Source: Oscillospiraceae bacterium (GTDB lineage Bacteria > Bacillota > Clostridia > Oscillospirales > CAG-272). Taken from it: a stretch of DNA of 64,000 nucleotides. The stretch is from contig SVSW01000001.1 of NCBI GenBank assembly GCA_015064095.1, forward strand, positions 709 to 64,708, given 5' to 3'. The translations under genes and the position numbers were made by a program. Positions within the stretch are counted from its first letter, which is position 1; each line of letters opens with the position of its first letter. Below are positions 3,739-60,919 of the stretch, piece after piece. The notes below the pieces were generated by a model. It worked only from the letters and a program-made list of their open reading frames with translations, did no database searches and was not told the DNA's origin.

Positions 3739-6141
3739 ATGAAACACGATTTTCGCAGCATCGAGCCGAAATGGCAGGACAGATGGGAAAAGGAAAAAGC
3801 CTTTGCCGCCGCCGATCATTCGGACAAGGAAAAATTCTATGCCCTCGTTGAGTTCCCGTACCCCTCGGGTGCCGGAATGCACGTCGGACATATCAAGGCT
3901 TATTCGGGTCTTGAGGTCGTTTCGCGCAAGCGCCGTATGCAGGGCTACAACGTGCTCTTCCCGATCGGCTTTGACGCTTTCGGTCTTCCCACCGAAAACT
4001 ACGCTATAAAGACCGGTATGCACCCCCGCACCGTCACGGACAAAAACATCGAAAAATTCAGCTCGCAGCTCCGTCGCGTCGGCTTCTCTTTTGACTGGGA
4101 TCGCGTGATCGACACTACTGAGGAGGACTATTACAAATGGACTCAGTGGATATTCCTCAAGCTTTTCGAGAAAGGACTTGCGTTCCGCGATAAAACTCTC
4201 GTAAATTACTGCCCCAACTGCAAGGTCGTTCTTTCAAACGAGGACTCTCAGGGCGGAAAATGCGATATTTGCCACTCCGACGTAGTCCAGAAATCAAAGG
4301 ACGTTTGGTATCTGCGCATCACCGAATACGCCGACAAGCTCCTCGAGGGGCTTGAAGAAGTCGATTATCTGCCGACCGTTAAGCAGCAGCAGATCAACTG
4401 GATCGGCAAGTCTACGGGTGCTTTCGTCAACTTCTCGCTCATCGGTGCTGATGAAACGCTCCGTATTTACACCACAAGGCCCGACACGCTTTTCGGCGTA
4501 ACGTTCATGGTCATGGCTCCCGAGCACCCGATACTCGACAAATATGCGGACAGGATCTCGAACATGGCAGACGTGCTTGCATATCGCACGGAGTGCGCAA
4601 AAAAGACAGAATTCGAGCGCACGCAGCTCGTCAAGGATAAGACCGGTGTGCGCATCGAGGGCATAACGGCGAAAAACCCCTTGACCGGCAAGGAAATCCC
4701 GATCTTTATTTCCGACTACGTTATGATGGGATACGGAACAGGTGCTATCATGGCAGTTCCGGCACACGATCAGCGCGACTTCGAGTTTGCAAAGAAATTC
4801 GGAATTGATATCATTGAGGTCATAAAGGGCGGCGATATTTCCGTCGAGGCCTATACCGGCGACGGCGAAATGGTCAACTCCGGCTTCCTCAACGGTTATA
4901 ATAACAAAAAAGACAGCATTGAACGCGCGGTCGAGGAGCTGACACGCCTCGGTTGCGGTGAGCGCGGCGTTCAGTACAAAATGAAGGACTGGGCATTCAA
5001 CCGTCAGCGTTATTGGGGCGAGCCGATCCCGATCGTTCACTGCCCGCACTGCGGAATGGTTCCCGTTCCCTATGACGAGCTTCCGCTTCGCCTACCTAAG
5101 GTTGAAAACTTCGAGCCCGGCTCGGACGGTGAGAGCCCGCTTGCAAAGATAGATTCGTTCGTCAACTGCAAGTGCCCCGTTTGCGGCAAGGACGCAAAGA
5201 GAGAAACGGACACGATGCCCCAGTGGGCAGGCAGCTCTTGGTATTTCTTGCGCTATATCGACCCGCATAACGATACCTGCCTCGCCGATCCCGAAAAGCT
5301 CAAATACTGGATGGCTGTTGACTGGTACAACGGCGGCATGGAGCACGTCACGCGCCACATGATATACTCGCGCTTCTGGTATCGCTTCCTTTACGATCTC
5401 GGCGTCGTTCCTGTTGCAGAACCGTATAAAAAACGCACAGCCCAAGGTCTTATACTCGGTCCTGACGGTGAAAAGATGTCAAAATCAAAAGGAAACGTCG
5501 TCGACCCGAATGCAGTTGTCGACGAATACGGTGCCGATGTTCTGCGCGTTTACACCCTCTTTATGGGTGATTACGAAAAGGCTGCTCCGTGGTCCGAAAA
5601 CTCCGTTCGCGGCTGCAAGCGATTCCTTGACCGCATAGCGGGTCTTACCGATCTTGCTTGTGGCAAGGGAGAGAGCCCTGCGATCACGAAGAATATCCAC
5701 AAGACATTGAAGAAGGTCTCCGACGATATCGAAAACATGAAGTTCAACACCGCGATCGCTGCGATGATGACACTTGTAAATGACATTTATGACGCAAAAG
5801 CTCTTACGAATGACGAGCTCGGAATCATCGTTCGTATGCTCTGCCCGTTCGCACCGCATATCTGCGAGGAGATCTGGGAGATGCTCGGAAATAAAACGCT
5901 CTGCTCGCTCTCCCCGTGGCCCGAATACGACGAGAAAAAGACCGTTGACGATACTGTCGAGGTCGCCGTTCAGGTTTGCGGCAAGCTCCGCGCAACGATC
6001 GAGCTTCCCGCCGACTGCGACAAGGATTTCGCTATCGCCGCCGCAAAGGCCGACGAGCGCGTTGCTCCCTTCATCGACGGCAAGACCTTAGTCAAGGAGA
6101 TCTATGTTCCCGGACGTATTGTCAACATCGTCGTAAGATAA
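3739..6141 (+). CDS. leuS: leucine--tRNA ligase
   Basis: 800 aa. HIGH region PYPSGAGMHVGH, KMSKS motif, and editing-domain length typical of bacterial LeuRS. AGGAGA RBS upstream. Confidence 0.97.
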   Translation: MKHDFRSIEPKWQDRWEKEKAFAAADHSDKEKFYALVEFPYPSGAGMHVGHIKAYSGLEVVSRKRRMQGYNVLFPIGFDAFGLPTENYAIKTGMHPRTVTDKNIEKFSSQLRRVGFSFDWDRVIDTTEEDYYKWTQWIFLKLFEKGLAFRDKTLVNYCPNCKVVLSNEDSQGGKCDICHSDVVQKSKDVWYLRITEYADKLLEGLEEVDYLPTVKQQQINWIGKSTGAFVNFSLIGADETLRIYTTRPDTLFGVTFMVMAPEHPILDKYADRISNMADVLAYRTECAKKTEFERTQLVKDKTGVRIEGITAKNPLTGKEIPIFISDYVMMGYGTGAIMAVPAHDQRDFEFAKKFGIDIIEVIKGGDISVEAYTGDGEMVNSGFLNGYNNKKDSIERAVEELTRLGCGERGVQYKMKDWAFNRQRYWGEPIPIVHCPHCGMVPVPYDELPLRLPKVENFEPGSDGESPLAKIDSFVNCKCPVCGKDAKRETDTMPQWAGSSWYFLRYIDPHNDTCLADPEKLKYWMAVDWYNGGMEHVTRHMIYSRFWYRFLYDLGVVPVAEPYKKRTAQGLILGPDGEKMSKSKGNVVDPNAVVDEYGADVLRVYTLFMGDYEKAAPWSENSVRGCKRFLDRIAGLTDLACGKGESPAITKNIHKTLKKVSDDIENMKFNTAIAAMMTLVNDIYDAKALTNDELGIIVRMLCPFAPHICEEIWEMLGNKTLCSLSPWPEYDEKKTVDDTVEVAVQVCGKLRATIELPADCDKDFAIAAAKADERVAPFIDGKTLVKEIYVPGRIVNIVVR

Positions 6142-25077: not shown

Positions 25078-25350
25078 GAAAAAGCCCTCCGCATCAAAAT
25101 TGATACAGAGGACGGATACACCGTGTTACCACCTCAATTCACCGCACTCTCACGGGTGCGGCCTCAAAGGGTACAAAAAATACCCCACCGCTTTAACGGG
25201 CGTACCCGTTGCCGCCTACTCGGATCTCTCCTTTCGGGGCACAGCTCACGAAATGTATTCGGCTACCGTCCACCTGCGATCTTTCACCGACCGATCGCTC
25301 TCTGCAAGGCTTTCCGATACCTACTTCTTCCCGGTCACAGCTTTTAATGG
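25078..25350 (-). promoter_or_regulatory. T-box leader RNA (tRNA-sensing riboswitch); specifier read as UAC (Tyr)
   Basis: All sequences below are minus-strand RNA.
- Stem I contains GCAGAGAGCGAUCGGUCGGUGAAAGAUCGC, which has the AG bulge and the GGUGAAA distal loop.
- The specifier loop reads GAA-UAC-A-UUUC (the codon is + strand 25255-25257).
- Stem III is GCCGCAC...GUGCGGU.
- The T-box sequence is AAUUGAGGUGGUAACACGG (+ strand 25121-25140).
- The terminator is GUCCUCUG...CGGAGGGC followed by UUUUU (25078-25113). Confidence 0.75.
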
Positions 25351-25997: not shown

Positions 25998-26071
25998 GCG
26001 GGTGTAGTTCAATGGTAGAATCCCAGCCTTCCAAGCTGGTCGTGTGGGTTCGATTCCCATCACCCGCTCCA
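25998..26071 (+). tRNA. tRNA-Gly (anticodon UCC)
   Basis: Hand-folded cloverleaf. Acceptor GCGGGTG/CACCCGC, anticodon stem CCAGC/GCTGG, loop CTTCCAA, T-loop TTCGATT, encoded CCA. Confidence 0.9.
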
Positions 26072-26092
26072 GATTGCCCGCCGCGTTTTTAT

Positions 26093-26169
<77 letters not shown>

Positions 26170-26177
26170 TATCGTAT

Positions 26178-26255
26178 GGTGAGCGTAGCTCAGTTGGTTA
26201 GAGCGCCAGGTTGTGGCCCTGGAGGCCGTGGGTTCGAATCCCATCGCCCACCCCA
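26178..26255 (+). tRNA. tRNA-His (anticodon GUG)
   Basis: Extra 5' G(-1), anticodon stem CCAGG/CCTGG, loop TTGTGGC, T-loop TTCGAAT, encoded CCA. Confidence 0.9.
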
Positions 26256-26834: not shown

Positions 26835-28121
26835 ATGCAACAATCAGTTAAAAGAAAGTTAAGTCTTCTTCCTTACATATATATCGCATGCGCGTTTTTT
26901 GTTTATCTCGCCGTTTATTCCGTAAGGGAATTGCTTGGTGCCGTTTCGCCAAGCCTTCTTGCGCTTTCGGTATTCAACGAAGATACGTTGGGCGTTTTTT
27001 CGTCTATTATGTTTGCGTTCTACGGCATAGGACAGTTTGTAAACGGATTTCTGGGAGAAAAGCTGAACGTTAAGTTTATGATCACCGCAGGACTTGTAAG
27101 CGCTGCACTGTGTACGCTCGGATTTGCAATTACCGACAGCCTTGCGCTTCGGTACGTGCTTTGGGCAATATGCGGATACTCGCTCTCCATGCTTTACGGA
27201 CCCTTGACCAAAAGCGTTGCTACGCATTTGAGCAGCAATCTTGCAAGGATCGCATACGTATTTTTGTCTGTTGGCGCGATCCTCGGATCAACAGTTGCGG
27301 GATTTATCGTTGGCCTTTGCGATCAATGGTACGTTTCGTTCTTTGTGACCGCAGCATTTCTTGCCATACCGCTGGTGCTTTTCCATATCGTAAATTCCCG
27401 ATTTGAAAGAATTGCCGCAAAAAAGAAGCAGGACGAAAAGTCCGAACAAACGCAAGAGGCTGTTCAGGCAAGCGAGGAAAGCTTCAACATTCGCAAGTTT
27501 ATCTCTTGCTTCGGTTTGACTACGCTTTGCTTCCTTGCTGTTAATATGATACTTAAAGCAGCAAGGCATGCCGTTTCCTTCTGGGCGCCGACATATCTTG
27601 CTGATGCGCTTGGCTTTGAGCCTCGCACGGCTGCCTTGATTTTTGGACTGACGGCTGTGATCAAGGTCGTAGCTCCGTTTTTTGCATTGGCAATTTACAA
27701 GTGGGTGAAGGAAAACGAGCGCGTGGTGATCTTGATCTCCATGGTCATTTCTGCGTCGTGCTTCTGCTCCATGCTCGTGATCAAAAATCCCCTTGTACAG
27801 GTGGTTCTTTTTACGGTTGCGCTGTTCTTTATTGAAGCCTCCGGCTCTATCATCGGCTCGGTGTTCCTTCTCAGCTTTAAGCAGTTTGGTTGCGTCAGCG
27901 CTATCTGCGGCTTCTTTGACAGTATTGCATATCTGACGGCGGCTGTTTGTACCGTACTTTTCACCAGCGTTCTTTCGGGTGGCGGCTGGACGGCAGTACT
28001 TTGGGTCTGGACGGCTTTGCCCATAGCGGCGGGGCTCGTGATCGCCGTGGTGGTCAACAAAAAGAAATTTTATGTTTCCACAGATAAAAAACACAAGATC
28101 AGAAAAGGAGAACAACAATGA
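26835..28121 (+). CDS. MFS transporter (possibly organophosphate/sugar-phosphate antiporter-like)
   Basis: 428 aa with 12 predicted hydrophobic segments and a central charged loop (KKKQDEKSEQ). The subfamily is a guess. Confidence 0.8.
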   Translation: MQQSVKRKLSLLPYIYIACAFFVYLAVYSVRELLGAVSPSLLALSVFNEDTLGVFSSIMFAFYGIGQFVNGFLGEKLNVKFMITAGLVSAALCTLGFAITDSLALRYVLWAICGYSLSMLYGPLTKSVATHLSSNLARIAYVFLSVGAILGSTVAGFIVGLCDQWYVSFFVTAAFLAIPLVLFHIVNSRFERIAAKKKQDEKSEQTQEAVQASEESFNIRKFISCFGLTTLCFLAVNMILKAARHAVSFWAPTYLADALGFEPRTAALIFGLTAVIKVVAPFFALAIYKWVKENERVVILISMVISASCFCSMLVIKNPLVQVVLFTVALFFIEASGSIIGSVFLLSFKQFGCVSAICGFFDSIAYLTAAVCTVLFTSVLSGGGWTAVLWVWTALPIAAGLVIAVVVNKKKFYVSTDKKHKIRKGEQQ

Positions 28122-28951
28122 AGATCAAACAGGATATTCACATTCACTCATACCACTCCCCCTGTGCTCAAAGCAACGCCACCCCTCAGTTCTATATTGA
28201 TAACGCAGCTGAAAGAGGCCTTGAGCTGATCGGATTTGCCGACCATATGTGGGACAACGGACACGGTTATTCCATTGCGTCTTATGAAAGACACCAAACC
28301 AATTTCGCGCGTTTGTTAAAGATAAAAGACGATCTCGCAAAGTGCACCATTCCCGATGGATTGCGAGTGCTTGTTGGCTGCGAAAGCGATTTTACCGCAG
28401 ACAGCACGCTCGGTATTTCACGCGAGGTCGCAGCGCAGCTCGATTTCGTCCTCGTTGCACATTCACATACGCATTTTCCCGAAATTTGCCCCTCGCCTTA
28501 CAGAGACGATCGCTTCTCCTGCGCAAAATTCGCGCTGAATGCGTTTAAACGACTGATGAAGCACCCCGATGCAGATCTGATCACCGCAATTCCGCACCCG
28601 ATAGCAACGCATTATGTTGGGCAGGAAGGATCAGACTTAGATGCTATTGCAGCAATCAGCGATGCGGAATTCAGAGAAGCTTTTTTGCTTGCAGCAGATA
28701 AGCAGATCGGAATCGAGATCAATGCCCACATCGCCATGTTTGCCCTTAAAGCGGCAGGCACCGACATAAAGGATATTGACAAGATAAAAAATAATGAGTA
28801 TTACCGTATGTTCAGCATTGCCAAGGAAACCGGCTGTAAGTTTACTTTCGGTTCCGATGCACATAGCCAGGGTGCTGTGGAGTATTTTGCCTACGCACAG
28901 GCAATGGCAGATGCACTCGGTCTTACCGATGACGACGTGATCTTGCTTTGA
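28118..28951 (+). CDS. PHP-domain metal-dependent phosphoesterase (histidinol-phosphatase-like), paralogue A
   Basis: 277 aa. PHP motifs DIHIHS, GFADH, HSHTH and FGSDAHS. The start overlaps the MFS stop (ATGA). Confidence 0.7.
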   Translation: MKIKQDIHIHSYHSPCAQSNATPQFYIDNAAERGLELIGFADHMWDNGHGYSIASYERHQTNFARLLKIKDDLAKCTIPDGLRVLVGCESDFTADSTLGISREVAAQLDFVLVAHSHTHFPEICPSPYRDDRFSCAKFALNAFKRLMKHPDADLITAIPHPIATHYVGQEGSDLDAIAAISDAEFREAFLLAADKQIGIEINAHIAMFALKAAGTDIKDIDKIKNNEYYRMFSIAKETGCKFTFGSDAHSQGAVEYFAYAQAMADALGLTDDDVILL

Positions 28952-28996
28952 CATACATCAATACATAAAAGCAACGATCATTAAAGGAGAAAAGCC

Positions 28997-29830
28997 ATGA
29001 AAATCAAGCAGGATATTCACATTCACACCTACATCTCCGCCTGTGCTCAAAGCAACGCCACCCCTCAGTTCTATATTGATAACGCAGCTGAAAGAGGCCT
29101 TGAGCTGATCGGATTTGCCGACCATATGTGGGACAACGGAAAGGGTTACTCCATTGCATCATATGAAAGACATCATGGTAATTTTGCAAATCTCATAAGA
29201 ATAAAAGAAGATCTCGCAAAATGCACCGTTCCCGACGGATTACGCGTATTGGTTGGTTGTGAAACCGATTTTGTCGCCGACAGCACGCTCGGTGTTTCCC
29301 GTGAGGTTGCATCACAGCTTGATTTCGTTCTCGCTCCGAATTCGCATACGCATTTCCCCGAGGTTTGCCCATCTCCTTACAGAGATGATCGCTTCTCCTG
29401 CGTAAAATTCTCGCTGGACGCGTTCAAACGACTGCTGAAGCACCCCGATGCAGATATTATTACCGCAGTTGCGCACCCGATAGCAACGCATTACGTTGGG
29501 CAGGAAGGATCGGATATTGACGCTATTGCAACGATCAGCGATGCCGAATTCAGAGAAGCTTTCTTGCTTGCGGCGGATAAGCAGATAGGAATTGAGATCA
29601 ATGCACATATTGTTATGTTTGCCCTTAAAGCGGCAGGCACCGACATAAAGGATATTGACAAGATAAAGAATAATGAGTATTACCGTATGTTCAGCATTGC
29701 CAAGGAAACCGGCTGTAAGTTTACTTTCGGTTCCGATGCACATAGCCAGGGTGCTGTGGAGTATTTTGCCTACGCACAAGCAATGGCAGATGCACTCGGT
29801 CTTACCGATGACAACGTGATCTTGCTCTGA
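28997..29830 (+). CDS. PHP-domain metal-dependent phosphoesterase, paralogue B (tandem duplicate)
   Basis: 277 aa and collinear with paralogue A. I counted about 30 amino-acid differences by hand. AAAGGAGA RBS upstream. Confidence 0.7.
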   Translation: MKIKQDIHIHTYISACAQSNATPQFYIDNAAERGLELIGFADHMWDNGKGYSIASYERHHGNFANLIRIKEDLAKCTVPDGLRVLVGCETDFVADSTLGVSREVASQLDFVLAPNSHTHFPEVCPSPYRDDRFSCVKFSLDAFKRLLKHPDADIITAVAHPIATHYVGQEGSDIDAIATISDAEFREAFLLAADKQIGIEINAHIVMFALKAAGTDIKDIDKIKNNEYYRMFSIAKETGCKFTFGSDAHSQGAVEYFAYAQAMADALGLTDDNVILL

Positions 29831-29948: not shown

Positions 29949-30035
29949 GCCGGAGTGGCGGAATTGGCAGACGCCAGGGACTTAAAATCCCTTGACATTC
30001 GTGTCGTACGGGTTCGAGCCCCGTTTCCGGCACCA
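29949..30035 (+). tRNA. tRNA-Leu (anticodon UAA)
   Basis: Class II tRNA with a long variable arm. Anticodon stem AGGGA/TCCCT, loop CTTAAAA, encoded CCA. Confidence 0.88.
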
Positions 30036-47548: not shown

Positions 47549-48230
47549 CGTCCGTATCATACTTATAATCCGAGTTCTCAAAGATCGTCCCAAAATCCGA
47601 CGGATCGCCTCTCAAATTTTGCGGTTCTTTTTTTCCGACAATGAAAATAATGATCGCCTGAGCAAGACTTATCAGTATTGAAAGGACCAAAAAGACCGTT
47701 GCGTTTTCAGGTGAAAAGATCTTATAAATGCACCAAAGCGCCATAAACATATGCACCATATAAACGATCGTTACGACAGAGAGCGCAATATCCGCCACCG
47801 TAAGGAGCAGCGACAGTGCCTCAACGATACCGCTTAAAGCTCCAAAAGCCGTAAGTATAAAAATAAGCGCGTAAAGTATCGTCGTTGCAAAGAATAAAGC
47901 AACCACGGCAACCGTCTCCCGAAGCAGCTTTCTGCCGTATCCCGAAGGCGCTTTTCCGTTATTGTACATATCCGCAAGCTCACCTGTCGCTTTTTGGCTA
48001 AAAAAAGGCACCCACGCGTGCCACGGGCGCGCGTATCCAACCTTTTTCAGCATTCGCATAAGCCCGATGCTCTGCAATATATACGCCGCCACGGCAACGC
48101 AAAAAGCTATTATGTAAGCGGCGGTCACAGCGCCGATAAAAAAGGCAATAAATACGTCAAAATAACCCTCAACGGGACTAAATATATTATCGTATCCTTC
48201 CTGAGTGATCAATCCAAGTAAAAAGTTCAT
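47541..48230 (-). CDS. hypothetical polytopic membrane protein
   Basis: About 229 aa with 5 hydrophobic segments and an acidic C-terminus. Start taken at the ATG (48230) 7 nt after GGAG. The longer ORF-track N-terminus is a translation of the repeated RNA element. Confidence 0.55.
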   Translation of the reverse strand: MNFLLGLITQEGYDNIFSPVEGYFDVFIAFFIGAVTAAYIIAFCVAVAAYILQSIGLMRMLKKVGYARPWHAWVPFFSQKATGELADMYNNGKAPSGYGRKLLRETVAVVALFFATTILYALIFILTAFGALSGIVEALSLLLTVADIALSVVTIVYMVHMFMALWCIYKIFSPENATVFLVLSILISLAQAIIIFIVGKKEPQNLRGDPSDFGTIFENSDYKYDTDDE

Positions 48231-48395
48231 GGTAATCTCCATTCCGCCGCCGGGGCGGCGCGAAAAATAGTTTTGAAAATTCAAATGTGTTCGATTTGCG
48301 AACAAAAACGGGTTCGTGGCCCGTTTTTAATTTGAATTTGGCAGCGTGAACAGTAAATAATCTACATAGACATATAATCTTTCACGCTAATCTCC
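48231..48395 (-). ncRNA. conserved structured 5'-UTR element, copy 1 (family unknown)
   Basis: About 90% identical by eye to 57471-57634 over the core. On the minus-strand RNA I see:
- Hairpin AGCGUGAA...UUCACGCU.
- A three-way junction with P1 AAAUUCAAAU/AUUUGAAUUU, P2 AAAAACGGG/CCCGUUUUU and P3 GUUCG/CGAAC.
- A GC hairpin, then GGAGAUUA, then the ATG. Confidence 0.6.
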
Positions 48396-48405
48396 TTTCA
48401 AAATT

Positions 48406-48434
48406 ATTATACTATTCCGCTGTATTTTTGTCAA
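48406..48434 (-). promoter_or_regulatory. sigmaA-type promoter driving element copy 1
   Basis: Minus strand: TTGACA, 17-nt spacer, TATAAT. The predicted TSS falls at the 5' edge of the element. Confidence 0.6.
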
Positions 48435-54129: not shown

Positions 54130-54157
54130 AAAAAACACCCCGAAGGGTGTTTTTTTA
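54130..54157 (-). terminator. intrinsic terminator of the spoIIIA operon
   Basis: ACACCC-uucg-GGGUGU followed by UUUUUU. The A-run overlaps the spoIIIAH stop codon. Confidence 0.75.
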
Positions 54158-54733
54158 TTTGCAAATGATCTTTACGTTAACGGGCTCGATGCCGGACTGA
54201 ACATAGACTATCTCATTAATCTGAGAAAGCTGAGCCGGTGTCAGCTCGCCGTCCCAAGACACGATAATGCTCGCATCGTCCTCATTGACGACTGCAACGC
54301 ATTTTTCAAATCCTTTGGCAACAACGAGAGTTTCGATATTCGTCTCGTTTTCCATGTTCTTTGCAAGCTTTGTCATATCCGTGTACGCCGCCGCCTTTGC
54401 TTCGGCCGATGCCGCCTCGTCGTCGACAACGCTTTGGAGCACTTCAAGCGCCTCATCACGAGCCTGATTGCGACTGACCTGTGCCGACGTATACCAATCC
54501 GTCGTCTCTGTGCCGCCGTTCACCTCGCCGCTGCCCGTGTAGGAATTATCCATGCCGTTGCTTTCGTTGTATCCGCCGTAGCCTCCGCCGCTTGTGTTTG
54601 CGATGACCGCCCAGTTGATCCATACCGCCGCGCCGACAAGCACAACTGCAAGTGCGATGATAAGATTGCGCTTTCCGATCTTGTCGAAAACGCCTTTGAT
54701 CTTGTCGATCGGTTTCTTTTTCTCGATAACCAT
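54155..54733 (-). CDS. spoIIIAH: stage III sporulation protein AH
   Basis: N-terminal TM anchor, SRNQARDEALEVLQ region and C-terminal YscJ/FliF-like domain. Last gene of the spoIIIA cluster. Confidence 0.75.
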   Translation of the reverse strand: MVIEKKKPIDKIKGVFDKIGKRNLIIALAVVLVGAAVWINWAVIANTSGGGYGGYNESNGMDNSYTGSGEVNGGTETTDWYTSAQVSRNQARDEALEVLQSVVDDEAASAEAKAAAYTDMTKLAKNMENETNIETLVVAKGFEKCVAVVNEDDASIIVSWDGELTPAQLSQINEIVYVQSGIEPVNVKIICK

Positions 54734-54805
54734 ATCTTTTCCTCCGAAAAAATTTCTTTACGCTATATGTATATTTGACGGCAGGCGCTTTTATGCCGCT
54801 TTTTT

Positions 54806-55279
54806 CTATTTTTTACCTTCCGTGATGAAAATGCGATTTGAGCCGACCCCGTATGCGGCGGACACAAGCGAGATCAGTCGGTTTTTTATGTTTTCGTCGC
54901 CGCCGCCCGTGCAAACGATCCCAACACCTGCGATCTTCGGTGTCTCGCGGCGCAATATAACAGCCGACGCAGAGCTGCCTGAGCCGACGGTCACGGGCTT
55001 TCCCTTTTCGTCCGTTGCGTATACGTATTCAAATCCGCCCTCAAGCGTGACGGCGACCGTCACATTCGAAACACCGCGTACGCTTGAACAAAGCTCCTTT
55101 ATCCGCCCTTCAAGCTCGCGCTCGTATTTTTCTATTTCCGAAAGCTCCGAAGAACCACCCGCCGATCTTTCGCCGCCGCCCGAAAAGAGGAGCAGCCCAA
55201 GGCCAAGCGCAAGCACGGCGGCGATAAGAAGCCAGCGCGCTGTCGGCGACATCTTTCCGAAAAAATCCTTTACGTTCAA
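54806..55279 (-). CDS. spoIIIAG: stage III sporulation protein AG
   Basis: 157 aa with a TM anchor. ELEGRIKELCSSVRGVSNVTVAVTL...VGIVCTGGGD matches the SpoIIIAG pattern. Confidence 0.8.
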   Translation of the reverse strand: MNVKDFFGKMSPTARWLLIAAVLALGLGLLLFSGGGERSAGGSSELSEIEKYERELEGRIKELCSSVRGVSNVTVAVTLEGGFEYVYATDEKGKPVTVGSGSSASAVILRRETPKIAGVGIVCTGGGDENIKNRLISLVSAAYGVGSNRIFITEGKK

Positions 55280-55290
55280 ATTTTACCCCC

Positions 55291-55767
55291 TTAATAATAC
55301 GTATCACAATCAACACCGACAAGCGAGGTCACGAACTCCTCGATATCATAGGGATTGCAGAAAACGGCCGCTCCGTGCAGCCCGATCGCAACGCGCCTGA
55401 CGGAAAATTCTCCCCCGTCCGCGAGCGCTTCGACCGAAACCGATATATTGTTTTCATCGATCGAAAAATTTTCACATATAAGCTCGGTCAGCTTTTTTTC
55501 AAGCTCCTTTTGCCCAAGCTCGGTAAGTATTCCGTAATATTCGTCCTCCGCACCAAGCTGCGGTGTGCTTTCAAGTATTGGATCAAAGATGCCCGAAAGA
55601 TCCCCGTCGCACGATGCGCCCGAAAGCGGGGCGGCAAGCGCCGAGATCACGCAAAGCGCCGCCAGCATTTTTACTGCCTTCGAATTTGAGCTGCCCTCGG
55701 GCAAAAAAAGCGATACGATCCCTGCGATCAGGGACGCGCCTATAAGAGAAATTATATATTCTTTCAT
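55291..55767 (-). CDS. spoIIIAF: stage III sporulation protein AF
   Basis: About 158 aa with two N-terminal TM segments. Assigned from position in the operon. Start taken at MKEYII. Confidence 0.7.
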   Translation of the reverse strand: MKEYIISLIGASLIAGIVSLFLPEGSSNSKAVKMLAALCVISALAAPLSGASCDGDLSGIFDPILESTPQLGAEDEYYGILTELGQKELEKKLTELICENFSIDENNISVSVEALADGGEFSVRRVAIGLHGAAVFCNPYDIEEFVTSLVGVDCDTYY

Positions 55768-55768
55768 T

Positions 55769-56890
55769 TTAAGCTCCGACCGCAGCGGTCCCGATAAGCA
55801 ACGCAAGCAAAAAAACGAACATAAGAGATGTTGCACAAAGGACAGCGGCGATATATCCGAAAACGCTGCCGATCTCCGAAAGCAGCGATGCTTCGCGAGA
55901 GCAACCGAGCATAGCAGCGAACCCCGATGCCGCGCTGTTCGCGGTCTTCATTAAAAGCAACGAAAAAAGCGTTGGCAAAAAGATCAAAAATATGATCACG
56001 ATACCGCAAACACCGATGCTTTTTCGAAGTATCCCGACGCTCGCAGCGAGCGTTTTCATACTTTCGCCGACCGCACCGCCGACGATTGGGATCGCCGAGC
56101 CCGCAAAAAACTTCACCGCACGAAGCCCAAGACTGTCCTGACCCGATGCTATTGCGTTTTGTGCCGCCGTCACAGCGCAAAAAAGCATCATAATAAATCC
56201 GAGCGCGGTCGTATACGTCTTTTTTATCACGCCCGATATCGGCCGAAGATCAAACGAAGCCGAAAATCCCGTCGTGACCGCGAGCGCAAGGCAAACACCC
56301 GAAAACGGAACGATACTGCGCGAAAGCACGTTTTCGCAAATACCGAGAAAGATGCCGAACGCGCCGCCGCTGACACTTGCAGACGCAACGTTTCCGCCTG
56401 CGGCGTAGAGCGAAACGGTTATGGGGAAAAGCACGTTGGCAACCGAACAAAGCTCCCCGATATACCGCGCAGACGACGCAACGACCCCGTATTGCAAGGT
56501 GAGTGCCGCCGCGCCGACCGCAAAAAACGAGCAAGCCGACAGCATATCCCCAAACTTCGGATCAAGCGAGGTGCGAAATGCCTCGATCGCCGCCGAAAGC
56601 AAAACAAGACCGCAAAGTGTGAAAAATATCGGCATTATCTCGGACAATGACGCGCCAAGCGCATCTCCTATAAACGAGAAAACATATTTCCAATCGGTCA
56701 GCGCTTCGGCGTCCGAAACGGGATCCTTGCCGTCCACTCCGTCGGGCAACGAGCCCGATATCGAGCCCTCAACTCCGTAAAAAAAATCTTCATATTCCGA
56801 TTTAAGATCATCATCGACCTCGGCAAACGCAGAAAATGAAAAGAAGATCAAAAAAAGCAGGACGAGGGCAAAGACAAATATACGTTTCAT
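55769..56890 (-). CDS. spoIIIAE: stage III sporulation protein AE
   Basis: About 373 aa with a signal peptide plus 7-8 TM segments. The start overlaps the spoIIIAD stop (ATGA). Confidence 0.8.
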   Translation of the reverse strand: MKRIFVFALVLLFLIFFSFSAFAEVDDDLKSEYEDFFYGVEGSISGSLPDGVDGKDPVSDAEALTDWKYVFSFIGDALGASLSEIMPIFFTLCGLVLLSAAIEAFRTSLDPKFGDMLSACSFFAVGAAALTLQYGVVASSARYIGELCSVANVLFPITVSLYAAGGNVASASVSGGAFGIFLGICENVLSRSIVPFSGVCLALAVTTGFSASFDLRPISGVIKKTYTTALGFIMMLFCAVTAAQNAIASGQDSLGLRAVKFFAGSAIPIVGGAVGESMKTLAASVGILRKSIGVCGIVIIFLIFLPTLFSLLLMKTANSAASGFAAMLGCSREASLLSEIGSVFGYIAAVLCATSLMFVFLLALLIGTAAVGA

Positions 56891-57276
56891 GTCAAATATA
56901 TAAGCTCCTGCACAACCTCGAGCAGGTCGTTTATCAGCGGCACGCAAAGAAGAAATATCTCGATCTTTCCCGCAAGCTCAACGCAAGAGGCAACCGTTGC
57001 CTCCCCTGAATCTCGGCAAACGGACGCGCACCCGTGACAAAGCAGAGCTACGCCGAAGCCCTTGAGGATCACGGCGGCGTATTTTGAGAATCCGACAGAG
57101 AGGGACAGCTCGTTCAAATATTCGATGGCAGGCCGTGCCGAGATCAAAAGCAAGGCGGCAAACACCATAAGCGCCGAGGCGCGCAGGGGAATCGAGAATC
57201 CCGCGCCGACCTGCTTTATTATCGCCGCCGCACCGATGACGATGAGCGCCACAGCGCAGATCTTTGCGCTGTCCAT
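56887..57276 (-). CDS. spoIIIAD: stage III sporulation protein AD
   Basis: 129 aa with four hydrophobic segments. The start overlaps the spoIIIAC stop (TAATG). Confidence 0.75.
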   Translation of the reverse strand: MDSAKICAVALIVIGAAAIIKQVGAGFSIPLRASALMVFAALLLISARPAIEYLNELSLSVGFSKYAAVILKGFGVALLCHGCASVCRDSGEATVASCVELAGKIEIFLLCVPLINDLLEVVQELIYLT

Positions 57277-57470
57277 TAAAGACCGAATACCGACCGCACG
57301 GTGGAGATCAGCTCGCCCATTTCCGACACGAGCATAAGCATAACTACAATGACACCGGCAACGGTCAAGAGCATTGCTTGCTCGTCCTTTCCCGATTTCA
57401 CCAGTATCTGCGAGGCAACGGCGACAAGCACCCCAACTCCTGCAACCTTTAATATAAGTCCTATATCCAT
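57276..57470 (-). CDS. spoIIIAC: stage III sporulation protein AC
   Basis: 64 aa: MDIGLILKVAGVGVLVAVASQILVKSGKDEQAMLLTVAGVIVVMLMLVSEMGELISTVRSVFGL. This is the typical SpoIIIAC size and pattern. Confidence 0.85.
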   Translation of the reverse strand: MDIGLILKVAGVGVLVAVASQILVKSGKDEQAMLLTVAGVIVVMLMLVSEMGELISTVRSVFGL

Positions 57471-57634
57471 AATAATCTCCATTCCGCCGATATAGCGGTG
57501 GCACAAATAATAATTGAAATTCAAATGTGTTCGCTTTGCGAACAAAAATGGGTTCGGGTCCCATTTTTAATTTGAATTTTGTAGCGTGAACCGTGAATTT
57601 TATTATAAACAAAATAAACTTTCACGCTAACTCC
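57471..57634 (-). ncRNA. conserved structured element, copy 2, filling the spoIIIAB-spoIIIAC intergenic gap
   Basis: Same architecture as 48231-48395. Here P2 is AAAAAUGGG/CCCAUUUUU, a compensatory change relative to copy 1. It starts at the spoIIIAB stop codon and ends at the spoIIIAC SD/ATG. Confidence 0.6.
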
Positions 57635-58110
57635 TATAAAAGCAATATAACAGCAAGCGCCGCCGCAGTCATGCAAAGCACGGTGTTCTTGCGCCTTTGT
57701 GCCTTTGATCTTTTCTTAAATTCCTCGTAAGCATCGCTAAGACGGTCAATATGATAATCACAATTCTTAACCTCGTCCTCCTTATATCCGGCTCCGAGCC
57801 GTGAAGAGAACGAAAGCAAAAGATCACGCGTTTCGCCATCGATCGGCGGCGAAAGTGAAGATAGGAAAGCGCTGAAATCCTCGGGCGTGATCTCACAGCC
57901 ACACTCCGAAAGAGTTTTCTTGTCGCACCTTCGGAATATCTCGCCAACGGGCACGCAATAGCAGTCTATCTGCGTTCTTATAAACCGCAAAAGCGATATC
58001 AACGCCGAAAGCTGTGTGTCTTTTTGCGTTTCGCGGCTGTTGAGGATCACAGACGCAAAAGCACCTCCGGCAAGTATAAGCGCGGCGCCGAAAAGCTTAT
58101 AGCTCATCAT
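57634..58110 (-). CDS. spoIIIAB: stage III sporulation protein AB
   Basis: About 158 aa. N-terminal TM segment (YKLFGAALILAGGAF), then LISLLRFIRTQIDCY, then a C-terminal TM segment. Start taken at MMSYK, overlapping the end of spoIIIAA. Confidence 0.75.
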   Translation of the reverse strand: MMSYKLFGAALILAGGAFASVILNSRETQKDTQLSALISLLRFIRTQIDCYCVPVGEIFRRCDKKTLSECGCEITPEDFSAFLSSLSPPIDGETRDLLLSFSSRLGAGYKEDEVKNCDYHIDRLSDAYEEFKKRSKAQRRKNTVLCMTAAALAVILLL

Positions 58111-58990
58111 CAAACGTATAAAGATAATCGTCGCCCGACCTGCGTATACCCACAAAATGCGAAAATATTCCCTTTTCTGCAAGCATGGCGATCCCCTTCT
58201 TATTTCTCAGCTCCGACTTGTTTCTTGCGTGCGCGGTCGCGAGCAAAGCAACGCCGCAGTTGTGCGCCGCCGCGACCGCGCACGCTTCCTCTGTATCAGC
58301 ACCGATCTCATCACAAACTATAAGCTCAGGCGATAGTGTGCGCGCGGCAAGCTCGATGCCAAGACCGCGGGGATAGCCCGAAAGCAGGTCTACCGTAAGA
58401 TTTTCCGGCAGGAAGCAGGAAAGTTCACCGCGCGTGTCGATCACCGCGGTTCTTACAGGTCTCTCGCCACCCGCAACATCTGAAATTATAGCGCGGAGAA
58501 GCGTCGTTTTCCCCTCTCCCGGCAAAGAATATACAAGCACACCGGAGAAAAATCCCGTTGATCTCAAAAGTTCTGCGACAGGCTTTCCGACGTGCGGAGC
58601 TCGGTGAGGTATTCTTATTGCCAGCGAGAAAACGTCATAAACCCCAACTATCCTTTGCCCCTCGGTCACAGCCCGCCCGCATATGCCGACACGCACACCG
58701 TTAGGCATTATTATGTATCCTCGGTTTATCGTGTCGCTGTAAGCGTAAAGCGATCCGCCGCACATTCTTTTAACAGTTTCGTCCATCTCGCGACGCGAAA
58801 GCTTATATTTTAAAATTATATTTTTTCGGTCTGAGGTCAAAGAGCACGCTCCGCCACATCGCAGGCGTATCTCCTCGACTCTTGCAATACGGCAAGCGGA
58901 TATCTCCGCCGCGAGCACTGTCGGCAAATACGAGAGTATCCCGGTATCAAGTGCCGCATCGTACACGCGATCATATAACTTCGTTTGCAT
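58097..58990 (-). CDS. spoIIIAA: stage III sporulation protein AA (ATPase)
   Basis: 297 aa. Walker A PGEGKTTLLR and Walker-B-like LIVCDEIG. First gene of the cluster. Confidence 0.85.
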   Translation of the reverse strand: MQTKLYDRVYDAALDTGILSYLPTVLAAEISACRIARVEEIRLRCGGACSLTSDRKNIILKYKLSRREMDETVKRMCGGSLYAYSDTINRGYIIMPNGVRVGICGRAVTEGQRIVGVYDVFSLAIRIPHRAPHVGKPVAELLRSTGFFSGVLVYSLPGEGKTTLLRAIISDVAGGERPVRTAVIDTRGELSCFLPENLTVDLLSGYPRGLGIELAARTLSPELIVCDEIGADTEEACAVAAAHNCGVALLATAHARNKSELRNKKGIAMLAEKGIFSHFVGIRRSGDDYLYTFDDEL

Positions 58991-60393: not shown

Positions 60394-60909
60394 ATGCGTT
60401 CAAAATCCGCCAAAATAATTCTTTGGGTCCTGCTCGGTCTCACCGCCGCTGCCCTTCTTTCCATGCTTATAATTTTCGTGATCGATGCTAACGGAGGCAC
60501 AGGCACGACCCACCATTGGGCGATGCCGCTTTTCAGCTCGATCTTTGCTGTATTCGGAATACTCCTTCTCCTTACATATATGCTCACGGAGCCGTCCTTC
60601 AAGAAAAAGCCCGAGGACGAGGAGGAGCTTTACACCGTTGACCGTACGTCATACGTCAAAAAGGCTAAGCAGCCCCGTCCGATAACGTCAACCGCAACCG
60701 CTCCCGAAGAAGCTCCCATTGAGGAAGCTCCTGCTGAGGAAGCCCCCGCTGAGGAAGCCCCCGCCGAGGAAGCTCCCGCTGAGGAAGCTCCTGCTGAGGA
60801 AGCCCCCGTTGAGGAAGCCACCGCCGAGGAAGCCCCCGTTGAGGAAGCCCCCGTTGAGGAAGCCACCGCCGAGGAAGCTCCCGTTGAGGAAGCCAAAGAC
60901 GCAGAATAA
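60394..60909 (+). CDS. membrane protein with C-terminal (EEAPx)n low-complexity repeat
   Basis: 171 aa with two N-terminal TM segments, then a Pro/Glu/Ala repeat tail. TTGACA-17-TAGAAT promoter upstream. Confidence 0.6.
   Translation: MRSKSAKIILWVLLGLTAAALLSMLIIFVIDANGGTGTTHHWAMPLFSSIFAVFGILLLLTYMLTEPSFKKKPEDEEELYTVDRTSYVKKAKQPRPITSTATAPEEAPIEEAPAEEAPAEEAPAEEAPAEEAPAEEAPVEEATAEEAPVEEAPVEEATAEEAPVEEAKDAE
60706..60894 (+). repeat. 15-nt tandem repeat, about 12.6 copies (GAGGAAGCYCCCGYY), in-frame EEAP(A/V/I)/EEATA
   Basis: Direct reading of the sequence shows the 15-nt period maintained throughout, with third-position and A/V/T variation. Confidence 0.9.
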
Positions 60910-60919
60910 TAAATCATAA

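Follow-up and report, generated by a model that had tools for sequence, protein, structure and literature searches.

Structured repeats ahead of start codons in an Oscillospiraceae genome are very probably miniature, transposase-less relatives of an IS110-family insertion sequence

A 64,000-nucleotide stretch of contig SVSW01000001.1 from an Oscillospiraceae bacterium (assembly GCA_015064095.1; the whole stretch is called the window here) carries two copies of a structured sequence directly upstream of start codons. Copy 1 sits between the divergent gene spoIIR and a gene for a predicted membrane protein, and constitutes nearly the whole 5′ untranslated region (UTR) of the latter. Within the spoIIIA operon, copy 2 separates the stop codon of spoIIIAB from the ATG of spoIIIAC (Table 1). 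Our results make it very probable that both are non-autonomous, transposase-less miniature derivatives (mini elements) of an insertion sequence (IS) of the IS110 family, whose DEDD recombinases are guided by bridge or seekRNAs. The proteins encoded downstream, the 229-amino acid (aa) membrane protein and SpoIIIAC, are unrelated, as a preliminary description of the window had stated; Pfam and NCBIfam searches with the membrane protein gave no match. The promoter that this description placed ahead of the membrane-protein gene matches the consensus in full.

Table 1. Coordinates of the two mini elements and associated features in the window (SD, Shine-Dalgarno sequence)
Feature	Position	Strand	Remarks
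Predicted membrane protein, 229 aa	47541..48230	-	Gene downstream of copy 1; from the open reading frame list
spoIIIAC	57276..57470	-	Gene downstream of copy 2; PF06686 and TIGR02848
Sigma-A-type promoter TTGACA-17-TATAAT	48406..48434	-	12/12 consensus positions; same promoter at the empty orthologous site in L058
AGGAG	48392..48396	-	Original SD of the membrane-protein gene, orphaned upstream of the insertion
Mini element (putative mini-IS110), copy 1	48235..48387	-	153 nt, GCGTGAAAG...GGAATGGAGAT; aligned with copy 2 and 13 other copies
Mini element (putative mini-IS110), copy 2	57475..57627	-	153 nt; upstream flank spoIIIAB stop codon and spoIIIAC SD, downstream flank spoIIIAC ATG; empty/filled comparison with L096-L098
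Left TA core dinucleotide, copy 1	48388..48389	-	Junction of host SD and element
Right TA core dinucleotide, copy 1	48233..48234	-	Followed by CC, then ATG
Left TA core, copy 2	57628..57629	-	Empty/filled comparison
Right TA core, copy 2	57473..57474	-	Empty site of the relative reads TT here
Hairpin H0	48344..48387	-	Terminal GCGTGAA pairs with internal TTCACGC; upper part variable in sequence, pairing kept
Three-way junction core	48277..48339	-	P1 48330-48339 with 48277-48286; P2 48304-48328; P3 48289-48303
Terminal module, copy 1	48235..48262	-	GC hairpin 48244-48262, AAT, GGAGAT 48235-48240

The 16-mer AATTCAAATGTGTTCG matches the window exactly twice, at 48278 and 57518 (0.06 matches expected by chance), TTAGCGTGAAAG is likewise present twice, and a repeat finder joined 48211-48358 and 57451-57598 into a two-copy family (78%). 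Aligned on the minus strand, the copies are 81% identical over 273 columns including the flanks, and 77% identical over the element proper. Both fold into a hairpin (H0), a three-way junction (P1, P2 and P3) and a GC hairpin, with a z-score against shuffled sequences of about -4.0 for each copy. At the RNA level, the base of H0 pairs GCGUGAA with UUCACGC, and the junction stems are AAAUUCAAAU/AUUUGAAUUU for P1, AAAAAYGGG/CCCRUUUUU for P2 and GUUCG/CGAAC for P3. On the 3′ side of the junction follow an AU-rich linker, the GC hairpin, GGAAUGGAGAU, four nucleotides and the AUG. P2 reads AAAAACGGG/CCCGUUUUU in copy 1 and AAAAAUGGG/CCCAUUUUU in copy 2, a single compensatory change from C-G to U-A; the altered pair is C48323 with G48309 in copy 1 coordinates. 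The repeat, the shared fold and the compensatory change, all parts of the preliminary description, are therefore real.

We retrieved SpoIIIAB homologues with their contigs and inspected the spoIIIAB-spoIIIAC junction in each (loci carry L numbers). In the closest relatives, with 87% SpoIIIAB identity (L096-L098), the junction is an empty gap of 8 nt. It is also empty at 61% identity, where the genes are either 16 nt apart (L054-L057) or overlap (L058, L059), and at 50% identity, where the gap measures 11-17 nt (L061, L062). In total, the spoIIIAC site was empty in six relatives and the membrane-protein gene site in one. The closest relative reads ...TTTTATAGGAGT-TT-TTATGGATATAGG and the window ...TTTTATAGGAGT-TA-(GCGTGAAAG...GGAATGGAGAT)-TA-TTATGGATATAGG, where copy 2 is a clean 153-nt insertion flanked by a duplicated 2-bp core. 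The boundaries of copy 1 were set by analogy with this comparison. Locus L058, which is syntenic with the window, has the TTGACA-17-TATAAT promoter, then AAGGGAGGTGTCCGTATG, a short UTR with its own SD and no insert at the site of copy 1. Taken together, the empty and filled sites assign the promoter and the upstream AGGAG to the host genes and the downstream GGAGAT to the element, and they place the insertion in the SD-ATG spacer. The promoter is thus a property of the membrane-protein gene and not of the element, and GGAGAT is predicted to act now as the SD of that gene.

These comparisons also shift some of the boundaries given earlier. The element proper is 153 nt long with TA on both sides, a small correction to its extent. 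Similarity between the copies does end near the ATG, but the exact end is GGAGAT plus TA, 2 nt before the start codon rather than at it. The letters GGAG(A)UUA and GGAGAUUA do open and close the copies, which reflects the way of insertion: the left GGAG is the host SD with the TA core, and the right one is the element terminus with the TA core. The orphaned AGGAG and the GTG of the element (48385-48383) give a 7-codon upstream open reading frame (uORF; MKDYMSM and stop) ahead of copy 1. Among the mini elements, such uORFs are incidental, short and of inconsistent length, and the GTG after the old SD is part of the terminus GCGTGAAAG; the distance from the old SD to the element differs from copy to copy.

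One homologue with 64% SpoIIIAB identity, L060, has a gap of 165 nt at the same junction, filled by a variant (4714-4878) with the same two end modules, an unrelated interior and a possible three-way junction. The variant looks like an independent site-specific insertion of a related element, as expected of mobile elements that are defined by their ends.

We found 17 mini elements in all: 15 canonical copies, a partial tandem copy in L040 and the L060 variant. They span at least seven Oscillospirales species or metagenomes and precede 16 different genes. Eight true copies, in six species of metagenome-assembled genomes (MAGs) labelled Eubacteriales bacterium, Candidatus Flemingiibacterium or uncultured Ruminococcus, came from scanning a single genome of each species for a P3/P1 pattern. 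A metagenome scan with an H0/P1 pattern gave three true loci among 43, one of them a tandem pair, and a protein-database search with the translated peptides of the element added only two more copies. A plasmid collection contained no match to the mini element, and scans of viral contigs with patterns for the mini core, H0 and the right-end terminus gave zero or chance matches only. In the tandem locus (L040 1-230), the first element is without the GC hairpin and SD module, and the second begins where that module would be expected.

All 17 mini elements lie upstream of a gene and point in its direction, none being found inside a coding region or in the opposite orientation, and nearly all end 4 nt before the ATG. 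No two canonical copies have a downstream gene in common. The genes include hflX, leuS and ftsH (translation and quality control); argG, pflA and genes for a flavodoxin-like reductase and a PHP-domain protein (metabolism); genes for an ABC-2 permease, an ABC exporter subunit and an Lrp-type regulator (transport and regulation); and spoIIIAC and two genes for proteins of unknown kind. In L010 (429-604), the copy lies between smpB and the transfer-messenger RNA (tmRNA) gene ssrA, its SD module is degenerate, GCG replaces GTG, and the sequence downstream, GGGGGCGTAAAGGTTTCGACGGGG, resembles a tmRNA 5′ end. With copies from other species or metagenomes, copy 2 shares 86-89% identity, compared with 77% for copy 1; in our interpretation this high identity across species at different sites results from mobility and not from conserved regulation.

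The terminal module by itself was first met in a phage-labelled record and in IMG/VR contigs. The phage-labelled record, from a human faecal contig (L065; MT836273.1 1376-2228), has only the terminal ~55 nt (CACTTTCATTACTATTTGTGCCGCC...GGAATGGAGAT) of what proved to be an IS left end, ahead of a gene with a metallophosphoesterase-like N-terminus. A different folded sequence of ~130 nt precedes the terminus, and L065 may be another mini variant or a truncated IS.

The same module terminates a full-length element. L068 484-2158 and L075 4733-6406 are 94% identical over 1,675 bp, have different flanks, and encode an IS110 DEDD transposase (PF01548, DEDD_Tnp_IS110, and PF02371). Twenty further copies came via two transposase clusters; the number of full-length copies found is 24. 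Read in host-gene orientation, the full-length IS starts with TA followed by GTGTGAAAG, immediately after an SD-like motif, and ends with ...TATTTGTGCCGCC-loop-GGCGGCGGAATGGAGAT followed by T(A/T)NNATG; the placement between SD and ATG and the terminus rule hold wherever the flank was retrieved. The transposase runs antisense to the host gene. In the alignment of the ends next to the ATG, mini and full-length elements share the last ~45 nt (a module also matched by nhmmer, and which copy 1 has in common with the 24 full-length left ends and L065). At the opposite terminus both read TA followed by G(C/T)GTGAAAG. TA or CA precedes G(C/T)GTGAA in 17/17 mini elements and all full-length copies, and T(A/T/G)-NN-ATG follows GGAGAT in nearly all of both kinds. 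The mini elements of L006 and L007 carry the exact GTGTGAA of the full-length IS. As a side observation, ATGGAT (6/16 mini sites) and ATGAA seem, by eye, overrepresented as the first letters of target genes of both kinds, and the target preference may extend into the first codons.

The left end of the full-length IS contains, on the transposase strand, GCAU-NNNN-AUC. In four subfamilies, the variable positions of this segment are reverse-complementary to the host flank T-NNN-ATG. The guide CATATAA accompanies the flank TTATATG (L068, L075), CATACTA accompanies TAGTATG (L069, L073), CATAAAA accompanies TTTTATG (L076-L081), and CATATTA accompanies TAATATG (L086-L095); sites with one or two guide mismatches also occur (L066, L084/L085). 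Target guides of this kind are known from bridge and seekRNAs (PMC11208160, PMC11187229). Judged by this covariation, the left end bears the signature of such a target guide, which here would cover the start codon. The segment was seen in the left ends of L068 (1860-2158), L073 and L076-L095.

Because of the insertion polymorphism with core duplication, the shared termini, and the target rule of the full-length relative with its guide-target covariation, we are highly confident in assigning both window copies to miniature IS110 derivatives. The right-end terminus, beside the old SD, is GYGTGAAAG, and the left-end terminus, beside the ATG, is ~45 nt ending in GGCGGAATGGAGAT. Direct reading reveals no terminal inverted repeats, as the left end GCGTGAAAGTTT and the reverse complement of the right end ATCTCCATTCCG have no similarity. 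Insertion is specific for site and orientation at a 2-bp core and leaves no long duplication of the target (17 mini elements, 24 full-length ones). Since the mini element, too short at 153 nt, encodes no DEDD recombinase, we file it as a non-autonomous derivative and not as an IS.

We propose that the mini element integrates in one orientation at a T(A/T) core in the sequence SD-N-TA-NN-ATG, that is, in the SD-ATG spacer, and that the 2-bp core would be duplicated upon integration. Mobilisation would need a recombinase, and probably a bridge RNA, in trans from an autonomous relative. On the host-gene strand, the GGAGAT terminus would provide the interrupted gene with an SD at the right distance, such that the gene stays translatable. 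The position and orientation of the copies relative to genes would then follow from the target rule T(A/T)-NN-ATG and from survival only where the SD-bearing end restores translation, and it is this restoration that would leave all surviving copies directly before start codons, where they resemble leaders.

Several observations weigh against this assignment. The core is TT in the empty relative, yet TA on both sides of the insert. At the right-end terminus, the similarity to the full-length IS spans only 9-11 nt. All full-length copies came from other hosts (metagenome contigs of Lachnospiraceae type and IMG/VR contigs), the named relatives of its transposase are from Lachnospiraceae (Anaerocolumna, Anaerobutyricum) and not from the Oscillospirales MAGs that bear mini elements, and a tblastn search of the mini-bearing loci (262 kb) revealed no IS110 transposase. 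Moreover, mobilisation in trans should need the ends alone, yet the interior (the three-way junction and the base of H0) is conserved across species far beyond that, and the H0 terminus covaries with its internal complement. The conserved interior and the H0 covariation point to some further function. Candidates for what the interior represents are a guide-like or recombinase-binding RNA, a structure of single-stranded DNA and an exapted mRNA feature. We think it rather improbable that the GC hairpin, three-way junction and end-complementary hairpin make up either a compact self-contained guide or recombinase-binding RNA that hijacks an IS110 recombinase, or an exapted leader that stabilises the mRNA and restores translation. 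A possible source of such a guide or recombinase-binding RNA would be mRNA-sense transcription driven by the promoter of the host gene.

The preliminary description had explained the pair as a cis-regulatory RNA maintained by selection on 5′-UTR structure. In this explanation, a leader RNA (riboswitch-like, a thermometer, or a stabilising or processing element) would have been recruited to many genes, each copy being co-oriented with its gene and abutting the start. The folds are stable (z = -4), and in the 15 canonical copies the stems form standard pairs in 94% of cells, so that mismatches do not occur in stems as they do in loops. Five of 40 pairs changed on both sides, compared with 0.9 in shuffles, and the covariation score was reached by 14/500 shuffles; this sample was partly chosen by sequence patterns that lie in P1 and P3. 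The base of H0 covaries (GCGCGAA/TTCGCGC in L010 and GCGTGG/CCACGC in L060, with a U.G wobble in L006 and L007), as do P3 in L031, L044 and L040 and P2 in copy 1. One-sided changes give G.U on the mRNA-sense strand. A further point in favour is that the GC hairpin directly 5′ of the SD, together with the 5′-proximal SD-like sequence, could stabilise the mRNA. Elements of the STAB-SD type are the model for mRNA stabilisation by a 5′-proximal SD-like sequence. However, orthologous sites are empty even at 87% protein identity, the copies have no gene family in common, one precedes the non-coding ssrA with a degenerate SD module, and the termini are those of an IS. P1, being invariant, contributes no evidence of covariation, 20/40 pairs never vary, and in the L060 variant the three-way junction core is swapped for a different sequence. 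An Rfam 15 search of the whole window gave nothing for the element at the gathering threshold, and both copies and related loci gave chance-level matches only at E up to 10. We found no terminator/antiterminator or SD sequestration that could serve as an expression platform: the SD is unpaired in the consensus fold, with no conserved alternative pairing, and the sole call of a terminator scan of the mRNA strand was the weak P3 hairpin (6 pairs) with a T-poor tail. The cis-regulatory interpretation is thus borne out only in part, and we consider a regulatory leader very unlikely as the explanation of the repeat.

Some specific forms of regulation and targeting were also considered and rejected. 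A transcription attenuator was set aside: the hairpin of P2 and its U-run, enclosed by P1, are not strong enough, and the GC hairpin has no U-run after it. Attenuation through a leader peptide, read from the SD and GTG uORF, was set aside as this frame has 6-7 codons in six copies, reads through in others and has no start codon in L010. We also dropped the SD as a long target-site duplication, since the left SD varies in register and sequence while the right one is constant and only the 2-bp core is duplicated, and a copy-specific target guide in the mini element, whose matches to its own flank are no better than those to the flanks of other copies.

As an alternative, a mobile mini element could hold a compact guide RNA of its own in the conserved interior, as a 'solo bridge RNA' parasite for which the recombinase alone must come in trans; H0 would then mark the complementarity between that guide and the element's own end. 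Across species, the interior is conserved to 90-100% and the loops are variable, the terminus GCGTGAA covaries with the internal TTCACGC in L010 and L060, and the GC hairpin stands where the prediction for the full-length left end has its first stem-loop. Read on the transposase-sense strand, P2 was scored as a terminator-like hairpin, and ISPpu9 has an associated small RNA (sRNA) module that moves on its own (PMC12288879). Opposing this, no segment of the mini element matches its own insertion flank better than the flanks of other copies, and the slot of the target guide in the full-length left end holds a different sequence in the mini element. L006 and L007 give U.G in a hairpin of the host-sense strand, but would give a C.A mismatch if a transposase-sense guide paired with the element end, and no transposase-sense promoter is evident in the integrated state. 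On balance we regard a self-contained guide as unlikely. Another kind of small repeat, such as an IS200/IS605-type palindrome-associated element, a repetitive extragenic palindrome (REP) with its REP-associated tyrosine transposase (RAYT), or a classical MITE (a miniature transposable element with inverted repeats), would explain the hairpins near both ends as recognition sites in single-stranded DNA, the absence of terminal inverted repeats, and the strictly oriented insertion without long target duplication. However, the element whose two ends are matched here encodes a DEDD transposase of IS110 and not a Y1/HUH enzyme, the target rule, with its 2-bp core and guide-target covariation, follows IS110, and a classical MITE would have the terminal inverted repeats that are absent here. 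The IS200/IS605- or REP-type candidate was dropped after the IS110 transposase turned up between the same termini, and we judge this whole class extremely improbable.

The assignment to miniature IS110 derivatives has precedents. MITEPpu9, a MITE-like IS110 derivative flanked by IS110 ends, relies on the IS transposase to form circles (PMC12288879); transposase and seekRNA provided in trans make engineered mini-IS elements mobile (PMC11187229); and 22 bp of IS621 donor are enough when the bridge RNA is supplied in trans (PMC11208160). Like our mini element, MITEPpu9 (the ssr9 module of ISPpu9, Pseudomonas putida; PMC12288879) is small, transposase-less and bounded by IS110-family terminal boxes, occurs in dispersed and tandem copies with a conserved dinucleotide at both junctions, and is probably mobilised by the IS transposase. 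Unlike it, MITEPpu9 targets REPs and bacterial interspersed mosaic elements (BIMEs), carries an sRNA gene with its own promoter, and has the core AG, whereas the mini element targets the SD-ATG spacer, ends in an SD, has an interior of a hairpin and a three-way junction, has the core TA, and was found with no linked full-length IS in the same genomes.

For the target, the closest likeness is IS900 of Mycobacterium avium subsp. paratuberculosis, whose target motif is CATGNNNNNNTCTCCTT, with CATG a few bases from a CTCC-type motif (PMC8141618). IS900 resembles the mini and full-length elements in its oriented insertion at CATG and CTCC-type (reverse-complement SD) sequence, and the full-length relative in having its transposase antisense to the target gene. 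It differs from the mini element as a full-length autonomous IS of Actinobacteria with different target spacing and sequence, and neither a miniature derivative nor a replacement SD is described for it in that paper (PMC8141618). Thus, miniature transposase-less IS110 derivatives and CATG/CTCC targeting were both already known, and by these comparisons our mini element appears MITEPpu9-like in nature and IS900-like in target.

The 1.65-kb IS110-family element itself (L068, L073, L075-L095; gut metagenome and IMG/VR) resembles the mini element in its TA-GTGTGAAAG right end, its ~45-nt left module TATTTGTGCCGCC-loop-GGCGGCGGAATGGAGAT, its TA/TT core, its SD...T(A/T)NNATG target and its orientation. 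What sets it apart is the DEDD transposase that it encodes and its left end, ~290 nt long and equipped with a target guide. Both are missing from the mini element, the interior of which is unrelated apart from ~15 further weakly similar bases. The likeness to the IS621 bridge RNA system (PMC11208160, PMC11208158) is at family level: a 2-bp core, no terminal inverted repeats and, in the full-length relative, a guide RNA in the left end upstream of the recombinase, with guide-target covariation. IS621 differs from the mini element in its CT core, its REP-type targets (according to the discussion of the ISPpu9 paper, PMC12288879), and its 177-nt bridge RNA with two internal loops. A T-box at 25105-25347 in the window resembles the mini element as a structured sequence of 150-250 nt between promoter and start codon on the mRNA-sense strand. 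Unlike riboswitch and T-box leaders, the mini element is not conserved at orthologous genes, has no expression platform, matches no family and is polymorphic for insertion.

Being structured, located in 5′ UTRs, co-oriented with genes, abutting start codons and marked by a compensatory change, the mini element is a convincing false positive for riboswitch and leader discovery, and was unmasked by comparison with empty sites and the match of its termini to an IS. If our assignment is right, RNA-guided elements of the IS110 type in gut Firmicutes have transposase-less miniature relatives in the SD-ATG spacer that supply a replacement SD, and these would be natural examples of minimal donor substrates for bridge recombinases. 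Were the self-contained guide to prove true, they would instead be natural minimal units of RNA plus donor for bridge recombination, carried in 5′ UTRs. The spoIIIA sporulation operon contains one copy, and another provides the 5′ UTR for a neighbour of spoIIR; an effect of the insert on translation or mRNA stability, should there be one, could alter the stoichiometry among the channel proteins of SpoIIIA. The guide code of the full-length IS, CAU-NNNN-AUC against the flank T-NNN-ATG, is readable in four subfamilies and could help in programming this IS110 clade.

The window also contains features apart from the mini elements. The spoIIIA operon is complete (spoIIIAA-AH, 54155-58990, minus strand), with pfkA just ahead of spoIIIAA at higher coordinates and a DUF1934-like gene after spoIIIAH at lower coordinates, and the gene order of the region agrees with L058 and L060. 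The T-box leader mentioned above lies on the minus strand and matches Rfam RF00230 with 116 bits. On the plus strand, 25998-26252 and 29949-30032 contain a cluster of three tRNA genes and another tRNA whose variable arm is long. Eleven tandem 15-nt repeats (60671-60910, plus strand) encode the (E-E-A-P-A/V)n C-terminal tail of a 171-aa membrane protein (open reading frame 60394-60909). Finally, 28088-28387 and 28967-29266 are direct repeats of 300 nt, 84% identical and 879 nt apart.

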